A DNA stretch of 32,000 nucleotides from the NCBI GenBank assembly GCA_942493105.1, contig OW818668.1, positions 1,830,001-1,862,000 of the forward strand. The letters run 5' to 3'. Shown one piece after another: positions 2,625 to 32,000 of the stretch. Made by a program: the position numbers and the translations under genes. Origin of the DNA: an uncultured Erysipelotrichaceae bacterium. Its GTDB lineage: Bacteria; Bacillota_I; Bacilli_A; Erysipelotrichales; Erysipelotrichaceae. The stretch's first letter is position 1. Each line of letters opens with the position of its first letter. The notes beneath the pieces were generated by a model, which ran no database searches, was not told the origin of the DNA, and worked only from the letters and a program-made list of their open reading frames with translations.

Positions 2625-3956
2625 ATGCTAGAACACCAAGCGTGGATACATTTTGCCCCTGAATTGGTATTAGAATGGAAACAAGCACAGGATGAAGGCC
2701 GAGATGTTAAACTCTTGCGAGCCATTTGTGAAGAGGTCGCAAAACGCGGGATCACTGAAAATAAAAACGAGGTCGCAAAAGCCATAAAAGCTCAACTCGA
2801 TAATGCTCCACTGATCAAAAACTACCCTTTTATAGAGCCTTCTGATTATCCTGGAATACAATCCGCAAAACCAAATAGAAGACACAAATTCTCTGTACAG
2901 TTATCCGATGAAGTCTTGTTTGATAAAATTAAGGGAGCATGGATTGGTCGTATCAGTGGTTGTTTATTGGGTAAACCTGTTGAAGGATGGCTGATCAAAG
3001 ATCTAACCAAACTACTTAAAGATTGCAATAATTATCCAATGGAACGTTACATCAAGCGAAATGAGTTCACTCCAGAATGGATTAAAAAAACAGATCCTAA
3101 TCGGGCATGGGCTGATTCACTAAATTGCTTTGCGCCGATTGATGATGATACCAATTACACTGTTTTAGCACTAAAACTGGTTCAAACTTATGGGAAAGAT
3201 TTTAGACCCAATGATGTTTTAGAAGCTTGGTTATCTTGGATGCCCATATTGGCAACCTGTACTGCAGAACGCGTCGCTTATCGCAATGCTTCTATGGGCT
3301 TATTGGCACCAGAAACTGCAACCACCATGAACCCATACCGTGAATGGATCGGAGCTCAGATCAGAGCCGATTTCTTTGGATACATCAACGTTGGCGATCC
3401 TGATCTGGCTGCCGAAATGGCCTTTAGAGATGCCAGTATCTCACACATTAAAAATGGGATCTATGGTGAAATGTTGATGGCTGCCATGATTGCAGCTGCT
3501 TCAGTCAGCGATGATGTATTGACCATCATTGAAGCGGGACTTGATGAAATTCCAGCTCGTTGTCGTTTACGCAGAGACATTCAAGCTGTTTTGGTGAATG
3601 TTAGAGAACAGAAATCTTATGATGAAACGATCACTTTGATCCACAAGCTTTATGACGAAACCACTGGTCATGGTTGGTGTCACACCAATCCTAACGCAAT
3701 GATCGTGATCACAGCTTTATGTTATGGAAACAAAGATTTCTCAAAAAGCTTAGGTATGGCTGTTCAAGCGGGATTTGACACAGACTGTAATGGCGCTACC
3801 TTAGGTTCATTATTGGGCATGTTGCTGGGAGCACATAGTATTCCTGAGCAGTGGATCCAACCCCATCAAAATACGTTAGAAACATCTTTGATTGGTTTCA
3901 CAAAAGTTACAATTGATGAATTGGTTCAAGAAACACTGTCATTAATCAAAAAATAA
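2625..3956 (+). CDS. ADP-ribosylglycohydrolase family protein with an N-terminal extension of about 100 aa
   Basis: ARH-family motifs are present: GAWIGRISGCLLGKPVEG, DDDTNYT, GFDTDCNGATLGSLLG. The track start at 2550 has no RBS. The in-frame ATG at 2625 is preceded by AAGGAG (2613-2618) with 6-nt spacing, so I use 2625. Confidence 0.85.
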   Translation: MLEHQAWIHFAPELVLEWKQAQDEGRDVKLLRAICEEVAKRGITENKNEVAKAIKAQLDNAPLIKNYPFIEPSDYPGIQSAKPNRRHKFSVQLSDEVLFDKIKGAWIGRISGCLLGKPVEGWLIKDLTKLLKDCNNYPMERYIKRNEFTPEWIKKTDPNRAWADSLNCFAPIDDDTNYTVLALKLVQTYGKDFRPNDVLEAWLSWMPILATCTAERVAYRNASMGLLAPETATTMNPYREWIGAQIRADFFGYINVGDPDLAAEMAFRDASISHIKNGIYGEMLMAAMIAAASVSDDVLTIIEAGLDEIPARCRLRRDIQAVLVNVREQKSYDETITLIHKLYDETTGHGWCHTNPNAMIVITALCYGNKDFSKSLGMAVQAGFDTDCNGATLGSLLGMLLGAHSIPEQWIQPHQNTLETSLIGFTKVTIDELVQETLSLIKK

Positions 3957-3977
3957 GACCACTTACGTGGTCTTTTT
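3956..3977. terminator. Bidirectional terminator between the convergent ARH gene and ribBA
   Basis: AGACCAC-ttac-GTGGTCT hairpin, flanked by A-rich sequence on the left and TTTTT on the right. It sits between two convergent stop codons. Confidence 0.7.
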
Positions 3978-5172
3978 ACTCTTCAAATTTTAACATATGA
4001 CTGAGTTTAACTTGTTTGGTCTTTAAGTAAAGCTCATTCTTTTCATTATGATTGAGCTGTATAGGAATTCTTTCAGAGATTTCGATCCCATAACCAGATA
4101 AACCAACCAATTTTCGAGGATTGTTTGTCATTAATCGCAATTGTTTGATGTTGAGATCCGCTAATATTTGAGCTCCAATCCCATAATCACGCATATCTGC
4201 CGCAAATCCTAAAGCAAGATTAGCTTCTACTGTGTCTAGTCCTTGATCCTGCAAAGCATAAGCACGAATCTTATTGATCAATCCAATTCCACGGCCTTCT
4301 TGCCTCATATATAGAAGCACACCACGGCCTTCCTTTTCAATAGCCTTCATAGCTGCGTCAAATTGTTGACCACAGTCACATCTGAGTGAGCCAAACGCAT
4401 CACCGGTCAAACATTCACTATGAACTCTGATCAAGACTGGTTCGCCATTACTGACATCCCCTTTTACAAGCGCAACATGATGTTCCTTGGTTAGTGTATT
4501 CTCGTAACCTATGATTGTGAAATCACCATAACGTGTAGGCATTTTAGCACTGGATGCACGTTTGATGATCGATTCTCTTTGTCGACGATGAGCAATCAAG
4601 TCTTCGATCTTGATGATCAGTAAATCTTCTTTTTGGGCCAGTTCAATCAATTCATCATGATTAAATCGTGTCCCATCTTCATGGGCGATTTCACTGACCA
4701 ATCCGACTGGTTTTAGGTTTGCTAAACGTGCCAAGTCGACAGAGGCTTCTACGTGACCTACTCTTTTTAGGACGCCCCCAAAATGCGCTTGGGTGATATA
4801 AATATGACCAGGTTGAACAAAGTCATTGATCGTTGAATTATAATCTGCTAATTTCTGTATTGTTTTTAATCGCGCCTTAAGACTTTGATTGCCTAAAACG
4901 CTCTTTTCTTCAATTGATACAGAATTGACTACCAAATAAGTATGATCGTCTAGACTTGCTTGAAAGCCAAGATCAAGTAAGCGAGCGGCTTCCAAAGCTA
5001 CATGTAAGGTCAAATGACCCACCTGTTCAAACAAGGCTAAATTTTGGGCCGAGCTCTTTTCTGCAGCCAAAATCAAATGTGCTTTTGATTCAGATGACTC
5101 ATCATCTAAAATGATAATGGGTTTACCCATTAAGGTTGCTTGAATGGCACTGGGAATCGTATTGAATTTCAT
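3976..5172 (-). CDS. ribBA: Bifunctional 3,4-dihydroxy-2-butanone-4-phosphate synthase / GTP cyclohydrolase II (RibBA); the RibB half is diverged
   Basis: The C-terminal half carries the GTP cyclohydrolase II zinc motif [18 protein letters not shown] and [15 protein letters not shown]. The N-terminal half is DHBP-synthase-like ([17 protein letters not shown]). The ATG at 5172 has AAAGGAA 6 nt upstream, whereas the track start at 5199 has no RBS. Confidence 0.88.
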
Positions 5173-5306
5173 ATTGTGTTCCTTTTGATATTTCTTCAAT
5201 ATAAAGTTAACTCATGGTAACCTTATAAACCATAATTCTGCCCAACTATCAAACGCATATAAAGAAGGAAACTAAAAAATGCCCAATCAAAGATCTTTCA
5301 TTTTTA

Positions 5307-7145
5307 TTATGATTTGCTTAACTCTGTTTCCAGCTCACCTTCATGGTCCTTGATTTGTGTTTTAAATTGTGTTTCATAAAGATGCGCATAAAGCCCATTA
5401 AACTTTAATAGTTCGTCGTGTTTGCCTTGCTCAAGTAGGACACCCTTCTCAAGTACAATGATGTTGTCAGCCATCAGAATGGTTGATAAACGATGGGCGA
5501 TAACGATGCTTGTTCTTCCAATCAAAAGAGGACCCATGGCTTTCTGTATGTATTCTTCAGATACAGAATCAAGTGATGAAGTTGCTTCATCAAGAATGAT
5601 GATTTTAGGATTTTTTAAAATGACACGGGCAATCGACAATCTTTGTTTTTCACCACCAGATAATTTGATTCCGCGATTTCCAACAATGGTATCATAGCCT
5701 TCAGGTAAAGTGCTTATGAAATCATGAATATAGGCTGCCTGACATGCTTTGATCATATCTTCAGTTGAAGCATCTGATTTACTATACAAAAGATTATCTT
5801 TAATGGAAGCATTAAACAGATAGGGTTCTTGCATGACGATCCCAATATGCGAGCGTAATGATTCTAGCGTCACATCTTTAATGTTGATCCCATCTACATT
5901 GACACTTCCGGATAAGACATCATAAAGCCTTGGGATAAGATTGGTGATGGTTGTCTTACCGGCACCACTTGGTCCAACAAGTGCTGTAATCGTTGAAGGA
6001 TAAGCCTTAAAGGAAAGGTCATGTAGGATGGGTTGATTTGAATTGTAGGCAAAATGTACATGATCAAACTCGATCAAACCATCTTGAATGGGTAGATCTA
6101 TCGCGCCTTCTTTGTTTTTGACTTCTTGGTCTTGGTCTAAATATTCAAATATTCTTCCAAATAAAGCAAAGGATCTGGTCACATCGATATGGATGTTGGA
6201 CAATTGTGTAACAGGTCCATATAAACGACTTAACAAGGCCACAAAGGCAATGATGCTTCCTACAGTCAATTCTCCTTGAATCAAAAGATAACCTCCATAG
6301 AAGTACACCATCATCGGACCTATGGTCATAAAGATCTGAATCGTCATCATAAACCAACGACCAACTAAAGATTCCTGAAGTTGTAATTTGATCAGATCCT
6401 TATTGATCTTTTCAAAATTCTGTTTTTCTTGGTTTTCTTTGGTAAAGATCTTCATTAAAATCAAACCTGATAATCCTAATGTTTCTTGGATGATCTGATT
6501 GAGCTCACTGGCTTTTTCTTGTGATTTCATGGCAATCTTCCATCTTACCTTCCCGACTTTTCGAGTTGGGAAGATAAACAAAGGCAAAACCACCATACTC
6601 AATAATGCCAATTTCCAATTCATATTAAACAAAACCAAAGCTGTGGTCAATAAAGTAAAGGATGAGTTTAATGCATTGACGATCGTAGAATTGAAAATAT
6701 CTTGTATCCCATCGATATCGGTGCCCATTCGAGTGGTGATTTCACCAGGTTTAGCCATCGTAAAGAAACTCAGAGACATTCCTTGAAGATGATGGTACAT
6801 CCTATTTTTTATGTTGAAGATAATGTGTTTTGAGATCCATGAATTAAGGTAACTTTGACCTACCTGTATCAGATTGATCAAGATCGTCGTGGCAATAGAT
6901 ATCAATACTAATAGCCCTAACATTTGGATGTCTTTTTGAGGCAAAGCCACATCAATAATGTTTTTCAATAAAAGAGAGGGTACCAAATTCAAGATCGACA
7001 TTGCCAAGATCATAAGGATCGTCAAACTTAATTGAAATATATACGGTTTAAAATGACTTAGGATGCGCAAAAGGATCTTCTTTGAGATCTCAGGAGCTTT
7101 ATCATTTTCACTAACATAACGTATTCTGCCTAAACCAGCTGGCAT
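5307..7145 (-). CDS. ABC exporter, fused permease/ATPase (MsbA / multidrug-type half transporter)
   Basis: 612 aa with an N-terminal six-helix ABC exporter membrane domain. Walker A is GPSGAGKTT, the signature is LSGGEKQRLSIAR, and Walker B is IIILDEATS. AAGGAGG RBS lies 8 nt upstream. Confidence 0.9.
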   Translation of the reverse strand: MPAGLGRIRYVSENDKAPEISKKILLRILSHFKPYIFQLSLTILMILAMSILNLVPSLLLKNIIDVALPQKDIQMLGLLVLISIATTILINLIQVGQSYLNSWISKHIIFNIKNRMYHHLQGMSLSFFTMAKPGEITTRMGTDIDGIQDIFNSTIVNALNSSFTLLTTALVLFNMNWKLALLSMVVLPLFIFPTRKVGKVRWKIAMKSQEKASELNQIIQETLGLSGLILMKIFTKENQEKQNFEKINKDLIKLQLQESLVGRWFMMTIQIFMTIGPMMVYFYGGYLLIQGELTVGSIIAFVALLSRLYGPVTQLSNIHIDVTRSFALFGRIFEYLDQDQEVKNKEGAIDLPIQDGLIEFDHVHFAYNSNQPILHDLSFKAYPSTITALVGPSGAGKTTITNLIPRLYDVLSGSVNVDGINIKDVTLESLRSHIGIVMQEPYLFNASIKDNLLYSKSDASTEDMIKACQAAYIHDFISTLPEGYDTIVGNRGIKLSGGEKQRLSIARVILKNPKIIILDEATSSLDSVSEEYIQKAMGPLLIGRTSIVIAHRLSTILMADNIIVLEKGVLLEQGKHDELLKFNGLYAHLYETQFKTQIKDHEGELETELSKS

Positions 7146-7242: not shown

Positions 7243-7971
7243 TTATTCATCTTGTTCAATCGTAAAGTGAAGATTTTCAGGTAAGATCCAGCAAGCATTG
7301 ATTTCGATCAATCGATCTAAACGATCATAAGTCTTAACGATCGAGTAGCAAAACGCACTGCCTGTAGGAACATTTAAAAGCTCGGCCTCCTTCTTACGCA
7401 GATTTCCGGCTTCCAAAGTTCTCTCTGAACGGCTGACTTCGATATGATACATTGATTCAAATAATGAATAATAAGGTTTGTTGCTTTGAAGCACATTTTC
7501 AAAGTCGGGAAATAAATCTTGTGGGAAGTAACAATCCATTAAAACTTGGGGTATATCGTTACCTGAATACAAACGACGGGTATAAAGAATCTTATTGAAA
7601 GGGATCTTGATTCCAATGTCTTTGGTGATCTTATGGTCTCTTTTTAGGGCTAAAGTTAAAATGCTGGGAATAGCTCCGCCTTGTCGGATGATGTCATGTA
7701 AAGATGTAAAATCTCTAAAAATCAATTGCGATACTTTGCCATAATTCACTGACCACGTTTGGTTTTTTTGAATCAAATGATTTGCTTTTGTCAAAGCTTG
7801 ATATGCCATCAAGACATCATTTTCTTCTACACCAAGTTCTCTGGCAAACTCAAAAACGCTGGGTAAACTTGTTCCCTGCAACAACTCTCCACGCATCAAT
7901 CTTAAGCGCAGTTCGATTTCTATTTGCTGAAAAAGAGGTGTCTTTGAGCGTCGATCGATGGTGATGTTCAT
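7243..7971 (-). CDS. GntR-family (HutC-like, UTRA effector domain) transcriptional regulator, second of a tandem pair
   Basis: 242 aa. An N-terminal GntR winged-HTH pattern (PLFQQIEIELRLRLMRGELLQGTSLPSVFEFARELGV) is followed by a C-terminal region of UTRA size. Its start overlaps the upstream gene's stop by 4 nt (ATGA). Confidence 0.8.
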   Translation of the reverse strand: MNITIDRRSKTPLFQQIEIELRLRLMRGELLQGTSLPSVFEFARELGVEENDVLMAYQALTKANHLIQKNQTWSVNYGKVSQLIFRDFTSLHDIIRQGGAIPSILTLALKRDHKITKDIGIKIPFNKILYTRRLYSGNDIPQVLMDCYFPQDLFPDFENVLQSNKPYYSLFESMYHIEVSRSERTLEAGNLRKKEAELLNVPTGSAFCYSIVKTYDRLDRLIEINACWILPENLHFTIEQDE

Positions 7972-8708
7972 CTTTTCTCCTGAGTATAGACCAATTTTAA
8001 ATAACGGCCAGGGTAAGTAGATTGAATAAAAAACAAAGGTTTATCCTGGGAGTCTACATAGGTGCTGCGATAGATATACGCAGCTTCATGACGTTCTACT
8101 TGAAGCATCTGTGACGAAAAGGATTGTAGATTCTCAACCGAAAATTCGTGTTTAGACCTTGCTAAGGGCAATTGATACATGTCTTTTGCCAATAAAGTTA
8201 TGGGATAATTAGGATTAATAAATGCTTTGTCAAGGTTAGGAAAGCTTGAACAAGGCAAAATTAATTCTTGACCATAGACTGGAGTCGTGTGATAGACAGC
8301 CGTCAAAAGTATTCGATAAACCAAAGTTCCTGGTTCAAGATTCAAATAAGCGAAAGCCAATTCATGTTGATCGATGATTTCAATTAGGTTAAGTTTTTTT
8401 TGAACACCCATTTGGGTAAAACGTTGCTCTAAGATTTTGATGTTGGTAATGGCTGTTTCGATTTTGGGGACCGTTGTGACAAAAGTTCCTTTACCTCTTA
8501 TTCTTGAAATCAGTTTTTCTTTTGTCAAAACAGAATAAGCTTGTTTGACGACGATATTGCTGATTCCAAATTGAGTACAAATGTCTTCGTCGGTAGGCAA
8601 TTGATCGTCATGCTTTAAAACTTGATCTGCGATTGCCTTTTTGATGCTTAAAACCAATTGCTGATAAATGGGTTGTTTTGAAGTTTTATTGATATGAAGG
8701 TAAAACAT
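7968..8708 (-). CDS. GntR-family (HutC-like, UTRA effector domain) transcriptional regulator, first of a tandem pair
   Basis: 246 aa. GntR wHTH pattern is present (QPIYQQLVLSIKKAIADQVLKHDDQLPTDEDICTQFGISNIVVKQAY...GKGTFV), with a UTRA-sized C-terminus. Confidence 0.8.
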   Translation of the reverse strand: MFYLHINKTSKQPIYQQLVLSIKKAIADQVLKHDDQLPTDEDICTQFGISNIVVKQAYSVLTKEKLISRIRGKGTFVTTVPKIETAITNIKILEQRFTQMGVQKKLNLIEIIDQHELAFAYLNLEPGTLVYRILLTAVYHTTPVYGQELILPCSSFPNLDKAFINPNYPITLLAKDMYQLPLARSKHEFSVENLQSFSSQMLQVERHEAAYIYRSTYVDSQDKPLFFIQSTYPGRYLKLVYTQEKR

Positions 8709-18262: not shown

Positions 18263-18291
18263 TTGATAAGAGTACATTTGAAGTGTATTAT
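18263..18291 (+). promoter_or_regulatory. Candidate promoter of the nagA-like gene
   Basis: TTGATA (18263-18268), a 17-nt spacer, then TATTAT (18286-18291). The RBS AAGGAGG at 18301 follows closely. Confidence 0.4.
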
Positions 18292-18313
18292 TAAATATAT
18301 AAGGAGGATAGAT

Positions 18314-19507
18314 ATGATTATCCAATCAAGTCGAATTTATACTGAAAATGGTTGTGTAGACGGTTTTTTAGAGGTAGAAAATGGCAAGATCAAACGAATT
18401 TTGCCAAAGCATCTTAATGTTAAAGCTGACCTTAAGTACGGGGATCTTAGAATCATCCCAGGCATTTTTGATACTCATAATCATGGTGCTGTAGGATATC
18501 GTTTTGATGATGCGGATGAAGCTGGTTTAAAGGTTGCCCTTAAAGGACAAGCTGCATTTGGAGTCACTGGAGTATTGCCTACGATTTTAGATCTTGAACA
18601 ATTCCCTTTGATTGCTAAACTCGCCAATGAATTTGTGGATGGAGCTCAAGTATTAGGGATCCACTCAGAAGGACCTTGGGGCTCAAGAGTCGGCGAAAAA
18701 GGTATCAATACAGGTTATCCTTCAGTTGATCTCGATATTGCGAAAAAAATGGTTGAGTATGGAAAAGGCAAACTAGTTTTAGTAGATGTTGCACCTGAAG
18801 TAGAACATGCTCTTGAAGCAATCGATTATTTCGTTTCTCAAGGGGTTACCGTTTCTGCTTATCATACCAATGCGAACTTTGCAGAAGCCAATATTGGGTT
18901 TGATCATGGAGTCAGTGTTTCAACCCATTTGATGAATGTTATGACAGGCCTTCATCATCGTGATGTCGGTACAGCTGGTGCATCCATTCTTCGCGATGAC
19001 GTAACCTGCGAATTGATTTGTGATGGTCTTCATGTTTGTTTGCCAATGGTTCAATTGATCTTGCGTATGAAAGATCACGATAAAATCATGATGATCTCTG
19101 ATAATGGACAATACCTTGGTGCACCTACAGGTAAATACAAAGGATTGAAACGCAATGAGAATTCAGATCGTAAAGTGATCATCGTAACACCAGAGGGTTT
19201 CGTATTAAGTGAAACTGGTCGTTTATCAGGTAGCAGTAAAGCTGTGATCTATGGCATCAAAAACTTAGTTGAAGTTCTAAAGATGCCCTTAGAAGAAGTT
19301 GTTAAAATGAGCAGTTTGGTACCCAGTCAAAAATATGGATTTTATAATAAAGGTTCCATTGCTGCTGGTAAAGATGCTGACTTCGTTGTTATCACCGATG
19401 ACTATGATGTTAGAGCGACCTATTGTTTAGGTAAAGTCGTATTTGACAGTAAGAAAGAAAAAGTACCTTTCAACCAAGAATTCTTAAGAGACAACAAATT
19501 CGAATAA
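18314..19507 (+). CDS. nagA: N-acetylglucosamine-6-phosphate deacetylase-like amidohydrolase
   Basis: NagA-type metal-binding motifs are present: DTHNHG, HSEGPW, AYHTNA, THLMNVM. The ATG at 18314 is preceded by AAGGAGG with 6-nt spacing, whereas the track start at 18263 lacks an RBS. Confidence 0.8.
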   Translation: MIIQSSRIYTENGCVDGFLEVENGKIKRILPKHLNVKADLKYGDLRIIPGIFDTHNHGAVGYRFDDADEAGLKVALKGQAAFGVTGVLPTILDLEQFPLIAKLANEFVDGAQVLGIHSEGPWGSRVGEKGINTGYPSVDLDIAKKMVEYGKGKLVLVDVAPEVEHALEAIDYFVSQGVTVSAYHTNANFAEANIGFDHGVSVSTHLMNVMTGLHHRDVGTAGASILRDDVTCELICDGLHVCLPMVQLILRMKDHDKIMMISDNGQYLGAPTGKYKGLKRNENSDRKVIIVTPEGFVLSETGRLSGSSKAVIYGIKNLVEVLKMPLEEVVKMSSLVPSQKYGFYNKGSIAAGKDADFVVITDDYDVRATYCLGKVVFDSKKEKVPFNQEFLRDNKFE

Positions 19508-21798: not shown

Positions 21799-22939
21799 GG
21801 TATACCCCCATTATGTTTACTAATTTATGTTCTAGTAACTCAAAGATCTGATCAGACATCAAAGCCATAATCACCACTGGGATCGTACCTAGTAAAACCA
21901 AATCCGGAGCAGCTTGTGATAGACCTAGAAAGATCAATGCACCTAATCCTCCTCCTCCTACCAAACCCGCCAAAATGGTATTCCCAATATTTTGAGTAAG
22001 AGCGGTTCGAATACCGGAGATAATGATTGGAGAAGCCAAAGGAAAAGATACTTTCGTAAAGATTTGATAAGGTGTCATTCCCATGCCTTTGGCACTGTTA
22101 AGAACTGCTTCATCGACTTGTTGAAAACCGGCATAAGCATTGGCTACGATCGGCAATAAGCAATATAACGTTAACACAATGAAAGCTGGGGCAAAACCTA
22201 TCCCCTTGATGCCCCATTGAGAAAGGATCGGAAAGGCCTTTGATAGTAAACTTAATGGAATCATCACCAAACCCAACAAAGACAAAGTGGGTGCCACTTG
22301 AAATAGATTCACAAAACCCATGACCCATTCACGCCATTGACTGTGGGTATAACTGATATAGCCCAATAGTATCCCAGGTATGATGGCACTCAGTGCTGAG
22401 CTGAGGGCTAAGGTAAGATGTGTACTCATTGCTTTGATGAATGAGTCTTTAACATTATTAAACTCTTTCACCAAGCCTAGATTTGGGACGAGATTAAATA
22501 TTGCGCTAAGTGCGACCAATAAGACCATACTCAGTAAAAGCCATTTAAATGACTTGAATTGGCTCAAGATGATCAGTATGCCCAGTAATAAAACATAAAA
22601 ACCTATCCCTAGAGATACTCTTGCTGCGATGGGATTAAACTCAATTCCACTAACCGTAGCAGCAGATAAAGAAATCAGAGCCAAACTTGGTAAAAAGATC
22701 AAACTGATGATCAACCATTGGACCAAAGCCTTTAGATTTTCTTTTCTAATTTGAAGCATAAAAAGAATGATGATACCAAGGATTAAAGCAATTGTGATGG
22801 TTAGTCCAAAAAGATCAATTGGATATAGTAATATACCTTTTACCACTCGATTGGGTTTAAACTCACCTAAAGGCAAGGCAAAACATGCCAAGCCGATTAA
22901 GCCATATCCTAGAATGATCTTTAGTCTGGAAGACTTCAT
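21773..22939 (-). CDS. Osmoprotectant ABC transporter permease with an extra N-terminal membrane domain of about 170 aa
   Basis: The C-terminal ~210 aa is a BPD_transp_1 permease (NSAKGMGMTPYQIFTKVSFPLA). The N-terminal ~170 aa consists of additional hydrophobic helices. The start overlaps the stop of the binding-protein gene (ATGA). Confidence 0.85.
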   Translation of the reverse strand: MKSSRLKIILGYGLIGLACFALPLGEFKPNRVVKGILLYPIDLFGLTITIALILGIIILFMLQIRKENLKALVQWLIISLIFLPSLALISLSAATVSGIEFNPIAARVSLGIGFYVLLLGILIILSQFKSFKWLLLSMVLLVALSAIFNLVPNLGLVKEFNNVKDSFIKAMSTHLTLALSSALSAIIPGILLGYISYTHSQWREWVMGFVNLFQVAPTLSLLGLVMIPLSLLSKAFPILSQWGIKGIGFAPAFIVLTLYCLLPIVANAYAGFQQVDEAVLNSAKGMGMTPYQIFTKVSFPLASPIIISGIRTALTQNIGNTILAGLVGGGGLGALIFLGLSQAAPDLVLLGTIPVVIMALMSDQIFELLEHKLVNIMGVYHDTTQTSQ

Positions 22940-23868
22940 TTTTTCAAGAATTTATTTTCAATCAAATAAGCTTTAGCAACATCTTTGGCATCTAGTCCTT
23001 CATAAGCGACTTTCGCATTCAATGTTTGTAGTGTTTCTAAATCCAAAGATTCAAAGACAGGTTTCAGTAATGCTCTGATGCTTGGATAGACATCAAGGAC
23101 CGCCTTACGGATTACAGGTGCCGGTAAATACACTGGCGGAATCTGTTTTGGATCTTCCAATACGATCAAATCCAGTTGATCCAAAGCACCGTCTGTGCCA
23201 TAGACCAAAGAAGCATTGATCCCATTGGTGCCTTGAGACAAGGCTTGCAGCATTTCTGCTGTGTTACCTGATGATAATGAGATGATTTGATCATTGGTCA
23301 ATTTAAAATCATAGGCTTCTTCATAGCCCAATAGACCCATGGTATTTTCGATAAAACCAGCTGATGCAATCAGTTTAAATGGCTTTCCAGCATTGATGTA
23401 GGCCGCTAAATCAGCCATAGTGACTAAATTATTTGCTTGTGCAAAATCACGTTTCACCGCGATCATTTCAGTGTTATTGGCAGGGGCCGGTGTTAACCAT
23501 AAGAGATTGTTTTTTTCTCGATCCAGTTTTTCAGTAAAGGCATAACCGTCTTCAGGATCATTCCAAATCGAAGGGTCGGTCGCATCTTCAGGATGATAAT
23601 ACTGACCAGATCCGGTATAATCAACAACCAAATCCACTTCATCGTTTTCTAAAGCAGCACGTAAGATATCTGGTGTTCCAAAATAAAGTTTGTTTTCAGT
23701 TTTAATGCCTTTAGACTCCAGCATCAAAATAATCATATTGCCTAAGATCCCACCTTCAGAATCCAGCATCGTCGCAACGACCACAGGTTCTTTCTTTACA
23801 GTAGGTGCACAGGCAGTTAAAATACTAAGGCTTAATACTACAGCAATCATTTTAAAATATTTAGTCAT
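22936..23868 (-). CDS. Osmoprotectant ABC transporter substrate-binding lipoprotein (OpuBC/OpuCC-like)
   Basis: Signal peptide with lipobox LTAC and an OpuAC-type binding-domain pattern. The ATG at 23868 has GGAGG 5 nt upstream, whereas the track start at 23880 is a TTG. Confidence 0.85.
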   Translation of the reverse strand: MTKYFKMIAVVLSLSILTACAPTVKKEPVVVATMLDSEGGILGNMIILMLESKGIKTENKLYFGTPDILRAALENDEVDLVVDYTGSGQYYHPEDATDPSIWNDPEDGYAFTEKLDREKNNLLWLTPAPANNTEMIAVKRDFAQANNLVTMADLAAYINAGKPFKLIASAGFIENTMGLLGYEEAYDFKLTNDQIISLSSGNTAEMLQALSQGTNGINASLVYGTDGALDQLDLIVLEDPKQIPPVYLPAPVIRKAVLDVYPSIRALLKPVFESLDLETLQTLNAKVAYEGLDAKDVAKAYLIENKFLKK

Positions 23869-24021
23869 GTGGTCCTCCAAAAGTGTTCATCAGTTCAAGT
23901 TAGAATTTGATTCAACTTCGTATCCTGTCTTTATTTTACTCTACTTTTAACTTAAAACAAATATTATGAATGTTTATACTTAATGGTAAGGTCTTCATAG
24001 ATTTAAATAACATTGACAGTT

Positions 24022-24101: not shown

Positions 24102-26105
24102 CTAAACGATTATTTTAAATTCATTGATGTTATCTAAAAATAAGCCAACGATTTCCGGATCAAATTGCTTACCAGCATTAATTCTCATTTCATCCATTAC
24201 TTTTTCGATACTTAGAATCTGTCGATACGTTCTTTGAGATGTCATGGCATCAAAAGCATCGGCAACGGCAATAATTCTTGAAAACAAAGGAATGTCAGTA
24301 CCACTGAGACCTTTTGGATATCCTTTCCCATCCCAACGTTCGTGATGCGTCAAAACACATTCAGCGATCTCTGAAAACTCAATGGCAGAACTTAGGATAC
24401 GATACCCTGCCTCTGAATGTCGTTTGATTTGATCCCATTCTTGATCATCCAATTTACCTGACTTATTTAAAATCTCATCGGATATCCCAATCTTGCCGAT
24501 GTCATGCATGAGTCCTGCAATCTTTATTTTATCGATGTTTTTTTGATCAAAGTCCATTTTTTGAGCTAATTTTTCACATATCACACTCACTCGTTTAGAA
24601 TGCAGCATTTCTCGATTATTCTTTTCAAATAATGAATTGATGATGATATCTATAGTTTTACTGAGCATACTGTTTTTTGACACTACTTTTTCGTTGAGCA
24701 TACGGCCTTCAATCCGTTTGAATATGTCTCGATAACTCGTGTTGATGTTTTCCCAGACAGCACATCCCATGGATACAGAAATCTTCATCCCTTCAATTCG
24801 TTGTCGATCAATTGCGAAATTAATCGAGGTTTCAAAAAACTTCAGTACATTCTCATTTTGATTCTTGTGTAGAATCAGAAACTCATTGGAACTCACACGA
24901 GCAATCATGGCACTTTCTTCACAAGTTTTCTTAAGTGTGCTTGCGACTATTTTTAGTAGATTATCTCCTGCTTTATGTCCAAAAACTTCATTGACAGTTT
25001 TAAGTCCATTTACATTGACTAGGATCAATGAGATTGGAAAATCCTTTTCATGAATCTCTTTTTCAATAAATTCTTCATAGTATCGGCCATTATAACAATG
25101 CGTCAATTGATCGTGATAGGCTATATATTCTAAAAACAATTCATATTCTTTTTTCTCTGTGATATCTTGAACGATCATCATTAAGTGTTCTGGTTGATCT
25201 TGTGTGAATCTTACCTTTGATACCGATAAGTTTGCCCACAAAAGTTTGCCATTTTTAGTTACATATCTTTTATCCATAGAAAAATTCTTTAGTAAACCAT
25301 CTCTGATTTCATTAAGTTTTTTGTTTTGAATCGCTAAATCTTCAGGATAAGTTGTGTGATCAGCAGGCAATCTATTTATTTCATCGATGGTATATCCTAA
25401 CATATGTTCATATTCATTGTTGACTTCCATAATGACACCTTCCATCGTCGCATAACCTATGCCTGTAGGAGCTTGGTTAAAAATCGATCTGAATCTGATT
25501 TCAGCTTCTTTTAGATATTCTTGAGCTTCAATTTGTGAAACTTGGAAGTTGAATAACTTACCAAGGATAACGGTCACTAAAGGATAAAGGATCAACACTG
25601 GAGTCCCAACTGCTCGAATTGTAAGGAAGATTCGATCAACAGGCAATGTAAACATGCATAAAATCATGACCATATGTACTACTAAGCCCAACACATAGAA
25701 ATCAATCACTTTTCTTCGATGTGTATTTAAGATTTTGACCTTTGACCAATTCAAACCGATCCAAGTTGATAAGATGATCACTAAGACACCCATGATCACT
25801 CCTGATCCACCCATGATGATTCGATATATAACCATCATTCCACCAGCAATGAGAGCTGGTATCAATCCAAACATCAAAGCGGTGATCGATAATAGAATTG
25901 ATCGTGTATCAAAAGTAATCCCAGGTGCCATTCTATAAGGAAAGGTCATGATGAAGAGCCCAACCAGACCAAATAGTAAGCCACGGTAGATGTTGATTTG
26001 AAATTTATATTTCTTGTCATAAAAAGAGAGGATCTGTGATATTGCACTTAATGCGATCAGCATCTCAATGTTCTCAATCAACAAAGTAACTAAATCAATG
26101 ATCAT
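24102..26105 (-). CDS. Membrane sensor: 5TMR-LYT domain, PAS, degenerate GGDEF (SSNEF), and an HD-GYP c-di-GMP phosphodiesterase domain
   Basis: 667 aa with four regions:
- N-terminal multi-helix LytS/YhcK-type membrane module;
- PAS region (FRSIFNQAPTGIGYA...IVQDITEKKE);
- GGDEF-fold region in which the signature reads ARVSSNEFLIL;
- HD-GYP motifs HDIGKIG and HHERWDGKGYPKGL. Confidence 0.85.
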   Translation of the reverse strand: MIIDLVTLLIENIEMLIALSAISQILSFYDKKYKFQINIYRGLLFGLVGLFIMTFPYRMAPGITFDTRSILLSITALMFGLIPALIAGGMMVIYRIIMGGSGVIMGVLVIILSTWIGLNWSKVKILNTHRRKVIDFYVLGLVVHMVMILCMFTLPVDRIFLTIRAVGTPVLILYPLVTVILGKLFNFQVSQIEAQEYLKEAEIRFRSIFNQAPTGIGYATMEGVIMEVNNEYEHMLGYTIDEINRLPADHTTYPEDLAIQNKKLNEIRDGLLKNFSMDKRYVTKNGKLLWANLSVSKVRFTQDQPEHLMMIVQDITEKKEYELFLEYIAYHDQLTHCYNGRYYEEFIEKEIHEKDFPISLILVNVNGLKTVNEVFGHKAGDNLLKIVASTLKKTCEESAMIARVSSNEFLILHKNQNENVLKFFETSINFAIDRQRIEGMKISVSMGCAVWENINTSYRDIFKRIEGRMLNEKVVSKNSMLSKTIDIIINSLFEKNNREMLHSKRVSVICEKLAQKMDFDQKNIDKIKIAGLMHDIGKIGISDEILNKSGKLDDQEWDQIKRHSEAGYRILSSAIEFSEIAECVLTHHERWDGKGYPKGLSGTDIPLFSRIIAVADAFDAMTSQRTYRQILSIEKVMDEMRINAGKQFDPEIVGLFLDNINEFKIIV

Positions 26106-26148
26106 GGTGTTCCTTTCACTTTATGGTTTAGAATCAGAATAAATAGAT

Positions 26149-26196
26149 AAATAGTGCTCCAAAATAACATGATGCAACTATTTTGGAACACTATTT
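26149..26196. repeat. Long inverted repeat (18-nt arms, 12-nt loop) between the peptide gene and the sensor gene
   Basis: AAATAGTGCTCCAAAATA (26149-26166) pairs with TATTTTGGAACACTATTT (26179-26196), with 17 of 18 positions complementary. On the minus strand it is followed by the U-rich tract AUCUAUUUAUUCU. Confidence 0.6.
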
Positions 26197-26328
26197 GTTT
26201 AGAATAAACACGATGGAAAAAGTCAAACCGTCACTAAACATTCACCCATTTATTTTATCCCACTAAAATAATGACTTTGAACAACATACATCGGTTAAAC
26301 TAAACTAGGATATCCTTTGATGATTGGA

Positions 26329-26433
26329 TTAACCGCACTCATCAAACAGACAAATCGAATACTGTTTTGGTTGCGAAGTCGGAATGATCAGTAATCCTAA
26401 AACAAGACAAATCAATATTATTTTTTGTTTCAT
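26329..26433 (-). CDS. 34-aa signal-peptide-like pro-peptide with a Cys-containing polar tail (candidate signalling peptide precursor)
   Basis: This is the 3' part of the track's 82-aa ORF. The ATG at 26433 is preceded by GGAAAGG with 7-nt spacing. Translation is MKQKIILICLVLGLLIIPTSQPKQYSICLFDECG. It has a Lys-rich N-region, a 13-residue hydrophobic core, a P-T-S-Q-P break and a 12-14 aa tail. It is divergent from an HTH/TPR regulator. Confidence 0.55.
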   Translation of the reverse strand: MKQKIILICLVLGLLIIPTSQPKQYSICLFDECG

Positions 26434-26479
26434 TTCATTACCTTTCCTTGTTAAGAACATTGTATAAGGCAATTGTGAA

Positions 26480-26505
26480 AAAACTCGTTTTAATATAAAA
26501 CTCGT
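26480..26505. repeat. Two 9-nt direct repeats (AAAACTCGT) phased 17 nt apart in the divergent promoter region
   Basis: Repeats lie at 26480-26488 and 26497-26505. On the minus strand they read ACGAGTTTT. The proximal copy covers the -35 position of the peptide promoter, whose -10 is TACAAT (26464-26459). Confidence 0.45.
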
Positions 26506-26569
26506 CTTTTCGCGAATCATTAGCACTTTTACCGTTTTTATATTAGAATTAAAACGTTGAGGATAAGAA

Positions 26570-27817
26570 ATGTACAATAATGTCGGTAAACTAATTGGTT
26601 ATTATCGCAGAAAAAGATATGACGAAACAAAGCAAACCAACTTCAGTCAGGTTGGTTTTGTATATTATGAACATCGCTTGATCTGTGCTCAATCTAAACT
26701 ATCAATTATTGAAAACGGGAAAGTCAGAATTCCTTATCCAGAAGAGTATTATTATCTCATCAAGAACCTTGACTTCAATTCCTTGGATTATAAAACCATA
26801 GCACCTCTTTTTAACGAATTCACAGATCAACTTTTACATACACTTCAATTTTGTCCCATTTCGGATCTTCATCAATTACAAACCATTTATGAACAAAAAC
26901 TTGCATCTTATGGTGATTTCTTTTATCTACGCGAACTCAATGGGGTGTTTAAAGCAACCATCCAAGCACATTTAGGAATTGCTTTGCCAAGCATAAGTTT
27001 TTTAGATGAGTATCTTGATGCCTTGGATTGTTTCCCACAAACGGTTCAATTCTTGATTCTAGATCTATCGAATTTAATCATAGAAAACTACATTCCTTAT
27101 AAAGAAGTACGAGATAAAGTCAATGGGTTGGTTGATCAGTTACAATTGGATGCCCCTATTGTTAAGATCCTCAAAGCCAGTCGCAATTTACGCCAATTAA
27201 GATTGATCGATGCTCAGCAGAAACTAAAATCGATCGATGCAGAACATTTAAATGAACTGTTGAAGTTCAGAATTCAACGCTTACTGTTTATGATAGAAAT
27301 CGAAGACATTGAACAATTATCAAAATTCTCAGATGCTCAGAATCCAGCACTGAAATTTACAAACATCAATCGATTTGAAAGATGCAGACCCTATTTGATC
27401 TCAGGTTATCTGCGTTATTCATTTAAAGATTATGAACTTGCTTTAGTTGACTATAAAAAAGCACAATCCATCAATCCGGAAGCAGTTTGTTTTAGTATGA
27501 TCTACATCAGTGATTGTCTCTATGAATTAAAAAGAACACATGAATTGCATCTCTTCTTGATGGATGCGGAGCATCATATCTCCCACTTTTCAATGCTTCA
27601 TAAAGATATCCTCAAGTTTTTCAATGTCATAAGTGGGTTACAAGTCAGTGAAGATGAGTCATTACAGTTTAGATCGCTGTTTGAAAGTCTGGCTCAGTTA
27701 AATTCAGAAAGTCCTTATGTTAGAATCATCCGAAAACACTTATTGAACTATGCGAAGAAGTCCCATAAATATAAGCTTGTTTTTGATTATGAAACCATGA
27801 TGCTGGATAATCGTTAA
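26570..27817 (+). CDS. XRE-type HTH plus TPR-like repeat transcriptional regulator (RNPP-like: Rgg/PlcR/NprR/PrgX class)
   Basis: 415 aa. The N-terminus has an XRE HTH signature (VGKLIGYYRRKR...SKLSIIENGKV, compare the S-x-ErG pattern). The remainder is helical and repeat-like, with TPR-like segments (DYELALVDYKKAQSINPEAVCFSMIYISDCLYELKR). No enzymatic motifs are visible. RBS is TGAGGA. Confidence 0.7.
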   Translation: MYNNVGKLIGYYRRKRYDETKQTNFSQVGFVYYEHRLICAQSKLSIIENGKVRIPYPEEYYYLIKNLDFNSLDYKTIAPLFNEFTDQLLHTLQFCPISDLHQLQTIYEQKLASYGDFFYLRELNGVFKATIQAHLGIALPSISFLDEYLDALDCFPQTVQFLILDLSNLIIENYIPYKEVRDKVNGLVDQLQLDAPIVKILKASRNLRQLRLIDAQQKLKSIDAEHLNELLKFRIQRLLFMIEIEDIEQLSKFSDAQNPALKFTNINRFERCRPYLISGYLRYSFKDYELALVDYKKAQSINPEAVCFSMIYISDCLYELKRTHELHLFLMDAEHHISHFSMLHKDILKFFNVISGLQVSEDESLQFRSLFESLAQLNSESPYVRIIRKHLLNYAKKSHKYKLVFDYETMMLDNR

Positions 27818-30950: not shown

Positions 30951-32000
30951 TTACTGTGGCCACTGATAGACACCCTCTTGTCTAAGGCGAATCTTGATAA
31001 AACTATGTTTTCCAAAGACAGACTCCAGTGATGACTTGAGTGAAGCTGTCATCTCTTTTGGGATAAACATCAAGATCGTACCCGCAAAACCACCCCCATG
31101 AACACGCCAGGCGCCTTTGTTTTTGAGATGATCTTCTGCAATCATCAACGCAATGGCTAAGCCTTGCTGAGCAACATGCTTGTTCCAAGTATTTCGAAGA
31201 TAGGTATTAGATGAATTCCCAGAATCAACGATCAAAGACAGGAAACTAACAAGATCAGCCTGCTTCAATGCTTCCATCAAATCAAGGACACGTTGATTTT
31301 CCTGAAAGAAATGATGCGCCCGTAAAATTGCCCGTGAATCATATTTCTCATAGAGCTCTTTTAGTGAAGCATCAAACAGTTTCTTATCGACTCTAGACAA
31401 GACGTCTTGATTGAAATGTCTGGAGATCATTTTACAGTCAGTGAAGATTTCTGCATAATCTGCAGAAAGATCTGCATGTGACCCGCCTGTCTGTACCAAA
31501 CACAGATCCATTTGATCAAACATCGACTGACTGTCTAGTTTGGTCACGATCGGATTGTTTTTATCATAGAAATCAATGGCACAGAAGCCCCCATGGGCAA
31601 TGACCATTTGATCCATCAATCCACAAGGTTTATTGAAGTAGTTGTTTTCGGCCATCTGTGAAATGATTGCCATCAAACTGGGATCCAACTTGCCATGACC
31701 ATAATAGGATTCAAGGATCTTCACAATCAAAACTTCAACCGAAGCCGATGAGGATAATCCAGAACCGGATAAGACATCGCTTTCTACATACGCATCAAAT
31801 CCACCAATCACGCCATAGATTTCTTTGAAATAATAAGCTATTCCGCGAATCAATCCCATGGTCGTAAAGTATTCATCCTCATGAACATTTAAATTGTTGA
31901 GGTCAATGGGTTCGATTTTGTAGTTTTTTGAAACGAATCGGATGATGTTTTCTGTATTCTTAACGGTGAAAGCTACTGTATCTAAGTCGACTGCCATTGC
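30951..32000 (-). CDS. galK: Galactokinase (partial; the N-terminus lies beyond the window edge)
   Basis: The GHMP kinase motif SGSGLSSSASVEV and the C-terminal HGGGFAGT are present. The reading frame stays open to position 32000, and the N-terminal galactokinase signature is not within the window. Confidence 0.9.
   Translation of the reverse strand, partial: AMAVDLDTVAFTVKNTENIIRFVSKNYKIEPIDLNNLNVHEDEYFTTMGLIRGIAYYFKEIYGVIGGFDAYVESDVLSGSGLSSSASVEVLIVKILESYYGHGKLDPSLMAIISQMAENNYFNKPCGLMDQMVIAHGGFCAIDFYDKNNPIVTKLDSQSMFDQMDLCLVQTGGSHADLSADYAEIFTDCKMISRHFNQDVLSRVDKKLFDASLKELYEKYDSRAILRAHHFFQENQRVLDLMEALKQADLVSFLSLIVDSGNSSNTYLRNTWNKHVAQQGLAIALMIAEDHLKNKGAWRVHGGGFAGTILMFIPKEMTASLKSSLESVFGKHSFIKIRLRQEGVYQWPQ

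Follow-up and report, generated by a model that had tools for sequence, protein, structure and literature searches.

A hidden two-cysteine peptide gene beside a helix-turn-helix/TPR regulator forms a candidate RRNPP-type quorum-sensing cassette in Erysipelotrichaceae

A 32,000-nucleotide stretch of DNA from an uncultured Erysipelotrichaceae bacterium (contig OW818668.1, positions 1,830,001 to 1,862,000; hereafter the window) carries a gene for a 415-aa regulator and, on the opposite strand, a 34-codon gene concealed within a longer open reading frame (ORF). Comparison of the pair with its relatives suggests that the two probably constitute a peptide quorum-sensing system of the RRNPP type, with a new receptor subfamily and a new class of pheromone carrying two cysteines. 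A preliminary description of the window had proposed a cassette of this kind, and its statements on the two genes, namely the ORF coordinates, the 136-bp gap between the regulator ATG and the start of the opposite-strand ORF, the GGAAAGG ribosome-binding site and the nesting of the small gene in an 82-aa ORF, proved correct.

The small gene encodes MKQKIILICLVLGLLIIPTSQPKQYSICLFDECG, in which a basic start (MKQK) is followed by an apolar segment (IILICLVLGLLII), a linker (PTSQPKQYSI) and a tail of the form C-x4-C-x (CLFDECG). The enclosing 82-aa form, a mechanical ORF from TTG at 26329..26577, is not conserved, and in one related locus (L005 in our numbering) no ORF is longer than the 33-aa peptide itself. 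Among the 864 stop-to-stop segments of at least 20 aa in the window a single one ends in C-x4-C-(x), namely the peptide ORF. Between the window and the related locus L001 13 codons of the peptide differ, nine by synonymous and four by non-synonymous changes, and within the SICLFDECG tail there are three synonymous and no non-synonymous changes. A pattern of this kind marks a translated gene in which selection acts on the C-terminal tail, and the hidden 34-aa ORF is a real gene.

Conservation was followed across 17 distinct regulator loci, the window included; scans of genomes and metagenomes gave six loci. An ORF of 33-37 aa and of the same design adjoins the regulator in 14 of the 17, in which the regulators are from 100% to 22% identical to that of the window, and this yields 13 distinct peptide sequences (Table 1). 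Every peptide begins with Met and one to three Lys/Arg residues, continues with an apolar run of 8-14 residues and a usually Pro-containing break, and closes with C-x4-C, after which at most one residue stands before the stop codon. The two cysteines never vary, and in 11/13 sequences the residue ahead of the last Cys is Glu. The expectation of the preliminary description that a conserved tail and a variable signal region would be found in frame beside orthologous regulators was borne out, also beside very distant ones; its account of the tail as acidic with two cysteines holds for the C-x4-C pair, and the acidity is not universal. When all 4,440 stop-to-stop segments of at least 20 aa from the window and all loci were considered, 25 were found to end in C-x4-C-(x), 21 of them being the regulator-adjacent peptide gene and four being background (a rate of ~0.1%). 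A purine-rich Shine-Dalgarno sequence, mostly of the GGAGG/GGGGG type, precedes the peptide start in 10 of the 13 other peptide-bearing loci, the comparison covering upstream sequences other than those of L013 and L025. The small ORF might otherwise be regarded as a chance frame next to a solitary regulator, as it is unannotated or mis-called in most records and three relatives are without it, but its recurrence in 14/17 loci, the low background, the Shine-Dalgarno sequences and the synonymous-only tail effectively refute this.

Table 1. Regulator loci, peptide tails and genes found downstream of the peptide gene or beside the cassette
Locus	Regulator identity to window	Peptide tail	Cargo
Window	100%	...SICLFDECG	GGDEF/HD-GYP sensor
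L001	84%	...SICLFDECG	GGDEF/HD-GYP sensor
L003	66%	...VCLYDECG	GGDEF/HD-GYP sensor
L015	50%	...LCVYDEC	secreted 140-aa protein (no Pfam family recorded)
L023	48%	...VCLYDEC	uncharacterised secreted protein
L005	43%	...ACPYYECI	secreted 140-aa protein (Pfam DUF2599 recorded)
L017	42%	...DCVLIECG	uncharacterised secreted protein
L011/L013	42%	...NCILLECG	Gly-rich secreted 70-aa peptide (L013)
L018	41%	...NCILLECG	Gly-rich secreted 70-aa peptide
L019	37%	...QCLFLECS	small ORF, radical-SAM/SPASM enzyme, ABC transporter
L014	36%	...PCYYIVCI	lipoprotein
L021	28%	...ECLHFVCT	uncharacterised secreted protein
L025	22%	...FCYTWEC	small ORF ...FFCGGFC, radical-SAM enzyme, ABC exporter
L007	37%	missing	ABC transporter, two Cys-rich 47/48-aa peptides, two radical-SAM enzymes

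The tails track the regulator clades, with CL[FY]DEC and CVYDEC at regulator identities of at least 48%, CVLIEC, CILLEC and CLFLEC at 37-42%, and CPYYEC, CYYIVC, CLHFVC and CYTWEC further out; since the tails that contain D form one clade, phylogeny confounds any covariation of receptor and peptide. Where the two genes diverge, 224-250 nt separate the peptide stop codon from the regulator ATG. The divergent arrangement, which had been compared with that of Rgg/SHP, holds in most clades but not in L021 and L025, where the peptide gene, with its motif retained, shares the strand of the regulator and follows closely downstream of it, in the manner of PlcR/PapR. Two further candidates were set aside: an internal CMFDVC in an upstream frame of L024 does not border on a stop codon and was taken as chance, and the ORF at the equivalent position of L007 (LIPIVCLIVSYRKLRVFCCIYKLLSYEV), which lacks a C-x4-C tail and whose Shine-Dalgarno sequence is poorly placed, was not counted.

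For the regulator, which contains ICAQSKLSIIENGK and has no apolar segment, the claim of an XRE-type helix-turn-helix (HTH) joined to tetratricopeptide repeats (TPRs) found support in both profile and structure searches. Its AlphaFold2 (AF2) model, calculated from an alignment of 25 relatives, has a predicted local distance difference test score (pLDDT) of 93.3 and a predicted TM-score (pTM) of 0.91 and consists of ~22 helices, all-helical except for a small beta-hairpin at residues 32-37. Residues 1-~70 form the XRE-type HTH, with the hairpin inserted ahead of the recognition helix (ICAQSKLSIIENG), and in residues ~74-412 about 17 helices are arranged in TPR-like pairs, one of which, a canonical TPR motif at 274-305, agrees in sequence with consensus TPRs. 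In Pfam the regulator has a sub-threshold match to TPR_1 alone (E 0.005, residues 281-304), and HTH_3 is below threshold on the regulator itself. A profile of residues 1-72, with distant relatives included, has PlcR as its top match in the PDB (E 2.5e-4), the match spanning the recognition helix and the helix that follows (ICHQSEVSRIESGAVYPSMDILQGIAAKLQI), with further matches to the HTH domain protein 3pxp (E 0.009) and ComR (E 0.13). Profile matches to the PDB outside the HTH were to the generic TPR motif alone, which swamped the broad alignment.

When modelled separately (pLDDT 93.8) the N-terminal domain gave Foldseek matches that are almost exclusively XRE HTHs, the best being the DNA-binding domain of ComR (TM 0.70/0.74, root-mean-square deviation 2.6 Å), then SinR (0.63-0.67); the weak E-values of these matches are due to the domain having 72 residues alone. 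With the whole model Foldseek returned TPR proteins at prob ~1.0, with PlcR, RapF, AimR and Rap-pLS20 within the top 41 and RapH, at ranks 3-4 (TMt 0.47/0.44), as the best bacterial match. The predicted architecture of an XRE HTH plus TPR solenoid at 415 aa can be regarded as established.

In a large protein database 25 close relatives were found, nearly all of exactly 415 aa, which come from Erysipelotrichaceae metagenome-assembled genomes and metagenomes and bear at best the names 'hypothetical' or 'TPR repeat protein'. Their alignment spans the full length, with a very conserved N-terminus (MYNNVGKLIGYYRKK...ICAQSKLSIIENGK). An exhaustive profile search added ~25 full-length but very distant relatives of 410-450 aa, which have in common the N-terminus G.LIG.YR...Q..F...ICS..TLS.IE.G. 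At E<=0.01, 11 of the 31 aligned members match Pfam TPR_1 or TPR_2 and two match HTH_3. No relatives were found in plasmid, phage or viral-contig collections. The regulator itself has no match in curated families (none above threshold in Pfam, none at E<=10 in NCBIfam, none in PHROGs), and a phmmer search against the PDB returned nothing. The suggestion of a new subfamily holds in view of this, of the lack of a name in the databases and of the silence on such a family in the RRNPP surveys consulted, which make no mention of Erysipelotrichaceae, or of cysteine, disulfide or cyclic peptides. Within the 25-member family three cysteines of the regulator are invariant, C39 in the HTH, C154 and C316, the last in an invariant D-C pair, and C307 is near-invariant; C39 is also found in the ICHQS of PlcR. 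These invariant cysteines are worth recording, as the presumed ligand likewise carries two.

An alignment of the intergenic regions revealed the palindrome GCGAAT-N-ATTCGC, which is perfect in L012 and L014 and takes the form GCGAATCATTAGC in the window, with recognisable variants in L001, L003, L005, L011, L015, L017 and L018. Its exact 11-nt core, CGAATNATTCG, occurs once each in L011, L012, L013, L014 and L018, 40-58 nt upstream of the regulator ATG. The window holds no second site at <=1 mismatch; a second copy of the box at 31845, with 2 mismatches, is at chance level and was rejected. The box overlaps the -35 of the promoter-like site of the regulator, between the divergent genes, its other side facing the peptide gene, and a -10-like sequence, TATATTA(A/G)AAT or TGATATAAT, is conserved across loci. 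From its sequence and position the palindrome is a candidate operator of the HTH regulator, and a dimeric HTH regulator that controls its own gene and drives a divergent promoter would be expected to use a symmetric site at this place. Such placement has known precedents in the PlcR box and in the Rgg sites at shp promoters.

RRNPP(A) receptors are cytoplasmic proteins of about 250-500 aa with 5-9 TPR or TPR-like repeats that form a superhelix (PMC9765709, PMC10075063). A five-criterion signature of RRNPP systems includes a small propeptide, a TPR receptor of 250-500 aa and the proximity of the two genes, as neighbours within -50 to 191 bp, and has as its second criterion Sec secretion predicted by SignalP (PMC10075063). 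The cassette agrees with the structural definition (PMC9765709) and possesses the features named in criteria 1, 3, 4 and 5 of the signature; for criterion 2 a signal-like N-terminus was recognised by composition. The regulator combines a length within 250-500 aa and TPR/TPR-like helix pairs, as seen in the AF2 model and by Foldseek, with an N-terminal XRE-type HTH, as seen by the profile and the domain model, and the 34-aa propeptide is a small adjacent gene within the range of 10-100 aa, its N-terminus resembling an export signal by the same compositional judgement.

By analogy with PlcR/PapR, NprR/NprX and Rgg/SHP the propeptide would be exported by Sec or by a PptAB/Eep-like route and trimmed to a C-terminal peptide of ~7-10 residues containing CLFDECG. 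This peptide would accumulate outside the cell, be re-imported by an oligopeptide permease (Opp) and bind the concave face of the TPR domain, and the bound dimer would then shift its occupancy of GCGAAT-N-ATTCGC and so drive transcription of the peptide gene (a positive loop), the regulator and the downstream cargo. In the window the downstream target, reached through a conserved hairpin described below, would be a gene for a 5TM-LYT/PAS/GGDEF/HD-GYP sensor. The ring residues between the cysteines, which differ from clade to clade, would set pherotype specificity. Because the propeptides have 33-37 aa and neither an evident pro-region nor a conserved cleavage site, they resemble the SHP/PrgQ type, which takes the Eep/PptAB route, as much as they do substrates of Sec and signal peptidase I.

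A number of observations weigh against an RRNPP-type system. No whole-protein Foldseek match has an E-value <1e-3, and generic eukaryotic TPR proteins are interleaved with the RNPP matches, so that the evidence from the fold is for 'HTH + TPR solenoid' and not for 'RNPP clade'; whole-protein searches of the PDB and BFVD likewise gave weak or generic TPR matches alone, which are insufficient for placement in the RNPP clade. No known RRNPP subfamily model matches the regulator (Pfam, NCBIfam, PHROGs; phmmer against the PDB), membership of Rgg, ComR, PrgX/TraA, PlcR, NprR, Rap, AimR, AloR, Qsr and QssR having been judged by these general models and PDB sequences. Genes for Opp, Eep and PptAB were not found in the 32-kb window, and by inspection no conserved signal-peptidase I site (small-x-small) is obvious after the apolar core of the peptides. 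The peptide is missing from three loci (L007, L012 and L024), in the last of which the upstream sequence spans 329 nt alone. The cytoplasm, moreover, would reduce a disulfide, and the organisms in question are probably anaerobic. Among the loci without a peptide L012 offers a direct comparison, its regulator being 97.9% identical to that of L014 (L012 1300-1850 against L014 5454-6003). The upstream DNA of the two is identical across the promoter and the palindrome and unrelated beyond about 95 nt, from which L012 would appear to be either a natural orphan ('eavesdropper'-like) receptor or the site of a recombination breakpoint right at the cassette.

The step with the least support concerns the two cysteines, which most likely constrain the peptide in a six-residue disulfide ring or by another cross-link. 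Oxytocin has the same cysteine spacing. The options include a disulfide ring, a thioether made by an unlinked radical S-adenosylmethionine (radical-SAM) enzyme, and metal or thiol chemistry with C39, C154 and C316 of the receptor. To our knowledge all characterised RRNPP pheromones are linear, unmodified oligopeptides taken up by Opp. It is conceivable, if doubtful, that the cassette represents the first RRNPP-type receptor family with a constrained pheromone, its ring closed by a disulfide or by a Cys-Glu/Cys-Cys cross-link, and possibly with signalling gated by redox state (through thiol/disulfide exchange) or metal besides cell density; if true, redox-gated signalling in probable anaerobes would make the cassette a sensor of quorum and redox state at once.

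The gene downstream of the peptide gene varies by clade (Table 1). Some of this cargo is bacteriocin-like, e.g. the Gly-rich 70-aa peptide of L013/L018 and the radical-SAM/ABC clusters of L007, L019 and L025, and the small gene itself might be a secreted effector, a short cyclic antimicrobial or bacteriocin-like peptide regulated by an HTH-TPR protein that senses another ligand. We consider this rather unlikely. The one-to-one pairing of regulator and peptide holds to 22% identity while the cargo changes completely, the tail residues co-diverge with the regulator, and the peptide gene travels with the regulator even as the layout switches from divergent to downstream, all of which is the pattern of a receptor and its ligand and not that of a regulator and its cargo. 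Neither an immunity gene nor a dedicated exporter gene was found with the peptide in the window, and a mature part of ~7-12 residues would be short for a bacteriocin. A constant core of regulator and peptide with swappable cargo is, by comparison with known systems, typical of RRNPP cassettes.

Genes for radical-SAM-modified RiPPs (ribosomally synthesised and post-translationally modified peptides) are absent from the window and stand beside the cassette in L007, L019/L020 and L025; they are cargo of particular clades and lie outside the core cassette. The operon of L007 (1-3606), which is divergent from its regulator, comprises an ABC ATPase, an ABC2 membrane protein, Cys/Gly-rich peptides of 47 and 48 aa and two radical-SAM (SPASM) enzymes, a layout that we take to be reminiscent of two-peptide sactibiotics such as thuricin CD. 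A second small ORF follows the C-x4-C gene in L019 (MIKNLDLNFDNLGKPITLGIIVVTQD, 1286-2750) and in L025 (MLVTNEGITSYPTPRAWVNFFCGGFC, 3760-6251), and from their gene content these two clusters are candidates for quorum-sensing-controlled RiPP clusters outside streptococci. At C-x3-D/E motifs SPASM enzymes such as PapB form thioethers from Cys to Asp/Glu, and a connection of ranthipeptides with quorum sensing in clostridia has been described. With Glu before the second Cys in 11/13 tails, i.e. at C-x3-E spacing, and radical-SAM (+SPASM) genes adjoining the cassette in the clades named above, the C-x4-C peptide could itself be a RiPP precursor, in which a radical-SAM/SPASM enzyme, adjacent in some clades and in this genome encoded at another place, would link Cys to the conserved Glu in the manner of a ranthipeptide or otherwise modify the tail, the modified product and no plain or disulfide peptide being active as a signal or an antibiotic. 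This alternative is unlikely, as no radical-SAM gene lies nearby in 14/17 distinct loci, the 32 kb of the window included, better substrate candidates exist in the separate small ORFs between the C-x4-C gene and the enzyme in L019 and L025 and in the two Cys-rich ORFs of L007, and the N-terminus of the peptide resembles an export signal, not a RiPP leader. The position of radical-SAM clusters beside the cassette has a parallel in streptococci, where Rgg/SHP systems control radical-SAM RiPP (RaS-RiPP) operons (PMC9389541, PMC8092268).

In the window the minus-strand gene beyond the peptide gene encodes the sensor mentioned above. A hairpin with a folding free energy of -21.6 kcal/mol (z -6.5) lies 133 nt past the peptide stop codon, and both of its arms are invariant in L001. 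As ~43 nt separate it from the start codon of the GGDEF/HD-GYP gene, that gene must be transcribed through the hairpin. The transcript of the sensor gene could start at the promoter of the peptide gene or at a promoter-like site (26281->26252), and the hairpin could serve as a terminator of the peptide transcript and/or as an attenuator that links the cassette to cyclic di-GMP (c-di-GMP) turnover. Within 26106-26328 the stretch between the peptide stop codon and the hairpin is ~90% identical to L001, against 81-82% in the flanking coding regions. Passage of the sensor transcript through the hairpin suggests a leader or attenuator. The sensor (24102-26105, minus strand) is a membrane protein of 667 aa with 5TMR-LYT, PAS, GGDEF and HD-GYP (HD_5) domains, and so unites c-di-GMP synthesis-type and hydrolysis-type domains in a single protein. 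In L003 a ~640-nt insert (~3140-3760), absent from the window, separates the peptide gene from the GGDEF/HD-GYP gene; by eye its composition differs from that of translated ORFs, with many Arg/Gly/Pro-rich frames, and it contains no called gene with a Pfam match. No Rfam families were found around the peptide gene or in this insert.

In the window, L001 and L003 the peptide gene immediately precedes the sensor gene and shares its strand, and after the hairpin the sensor gene is left without room for a promoter of its own. The peptide might on these grounds be an extracellular or membrane-anchored ligand or modulator of the sensor, acting in c-di-GMP signalling. We regard this as very improbable, as the synteny is confined to the closest clade (those same three loci, at >=66% regulator identity) and other clades keep the pair of regulator and peptide with unrelated neighbours.

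The features of the cassette are collected in Table 2. Its surroundings in the window are ordinary chromosomal genes, among them transporters and genes of glycerol-3-phosphate and sugar metabolism, and a LacZ-type gene of glycoside hydrolase family 2 lies downstream of the regulator in convergent orientation. Pfam scans of the 32-kb window found no radical-SAM, Agr or Opp genes, and no AgrB/AgrC-type domains were among the Pfam matches of the flanking genes and most window ORFs of at least 90 aa, a scan that left out a 314-aa ORF (22936-23880) and a 348-aa ORF (30951-31997). Two ORFs of ~410 aa (18263-19507 and 3976-5199), considered as possible paralogues of the regulator, are unrelated enzymes. 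Elsewhere in the window (7243-8708, minus strand) there are two tandem overlapping GntR/UTRA-type regulator genes, the downstream of which (7243-7971) matches the UTRA domain alone at E<=1e-5, with the GntR HTH unmatched.

Table 2. Coordinates of the cassette features in the window
Feature	Position	Strand	Basis
Receptor/regulator gene	26570..27817	+	ORF, AF2 model, TPR motif, N-terminal profile, close homologues
Propeptide gene, 34 aa	26329..26433 (end includes stop codon)	-	ORF and conservation in 14/17 loci
Peptide Shine-Dalgarno AAGGAAAGG	26441..26449	-	sequence read; 7 nt from peptide ATG
Palindromic box GCGAATCATTAGC, candidate operator	26512..26524	.	conserved position, unique in window at <=1 mismatch
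Regulator promoter-like site TTAGCA-18-TAGAAT	26520..26549	+	consensus scan alone
Regulator Shine-Dalgarno TGAGGA	26558..26563	+	sequence read; 6 nt from ATG
20-bp hairpin, T-rich tail	26149..26196	-	folding energy; arms invariant in L001

If the cassette is what it appears to be, it extends RRNPP-type signalling to Erysipelotrichaceae. RRNPP_detector, which was applied to complete genomes, needs a match to a TPR HMM at E<1e-5 (PMC10075063) and would plausibly miss the receptor, as the best Pfam TPR match has an E-value of 0.005. A peptide gene that is unannotated or mis-called is a further reason for such systems to be overlooked. New candidates for RRNPP subfamilies have ceased to be rare; here the two-cysteine signal, which is family-wide, and the candidate operator make the cassette directly testable. 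The invariant Cys-x4-Cys tail points to another kind of chemistry at a cytoplasmic peptide receptor, and the 13 natural pairs of receptor and peptide, with their different ring residues, provide a testable set for specificity. The cassette may provide an input to c-di-GMP signalling in this genome, and its position beside radical-SAM peptide clusters in relatives may serve as a guide for natural-product discovery.

Comparison with known systems reveals likenesses to several of them. PlcR/PapR of the Bacillus cereus group shares the XRE HTH and TPRs, the recognition helix being ICHQSEVSRIESG in PlcR and ICAQSKLSIIENG here, which is the best sequence match in the PDB, as well as a palindromic box near the -35 and, in two distant clades of the present family, a downstream peptide gene. 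PapR is exported as a propeptide and supplies the signal as its C-terminal heptapeptide. PlcR, however, has ~285 aa as opposed to 415 aa here, where there are more repeats, and there is no detectable similarity outside the HTH; PapR has 48 aa and is linear (LPFEF-type), whereas the peptides here, of which that of the window has 34 aa, carry two invariant cysteines and no clear pro-region, and the layout is divergent in most clades.

In size the regulator is closer to NprR/NprX and Rap/Phr of the Bacillales, which have ~420-440 aa and about 8-9 helix pairs behind an N-terminal domain, and with which RstA of C. difficile is grouped as a system of similar size. The TM-scores, however, are 0.4-0.47 and NprR is outside the Foldseek top 50, and the Phr and NprX peptides are linear and free of cysteine, unlike the C-x4-C peptide.

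The Rgg/SHP, ComR/ComS and PrgX/PrgQ systems of the Lactobacillales share the divergent, short hydrophobic propeptide with its active part at the C-terminus, and the DNA-binding domain of ComR is the best structural match of the HTH. Three clades with a cluster of precursor, radical-SAM enzyme and ABC transporter also recall the shp/rgg genes beside the str, wgk and tryglysin operons. The C-terminal models of Rgg (Pfam, NCBIfam), however, do not match the receptor described here, which has ~130 aa more and includes a canonical TPR motif, and the peptide is longer than SHP and carries C-x4-C. With the thiolactone autoinducing peptides (AIPs) of Agr systems it shares the character of a short, Cys-containing and probably ring-constrained peptide signal in Bacillota. 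AIPs, however, need AgrB and a membrane histidine kinase sensor, whereas the partner here is a cytoplasmic HTH-TPR protein, and the ring of an AIP joins Cys to the C-terminal carboxylate, whereas the ring of the peptide described here would run from Cys to Cys (i, i+5).

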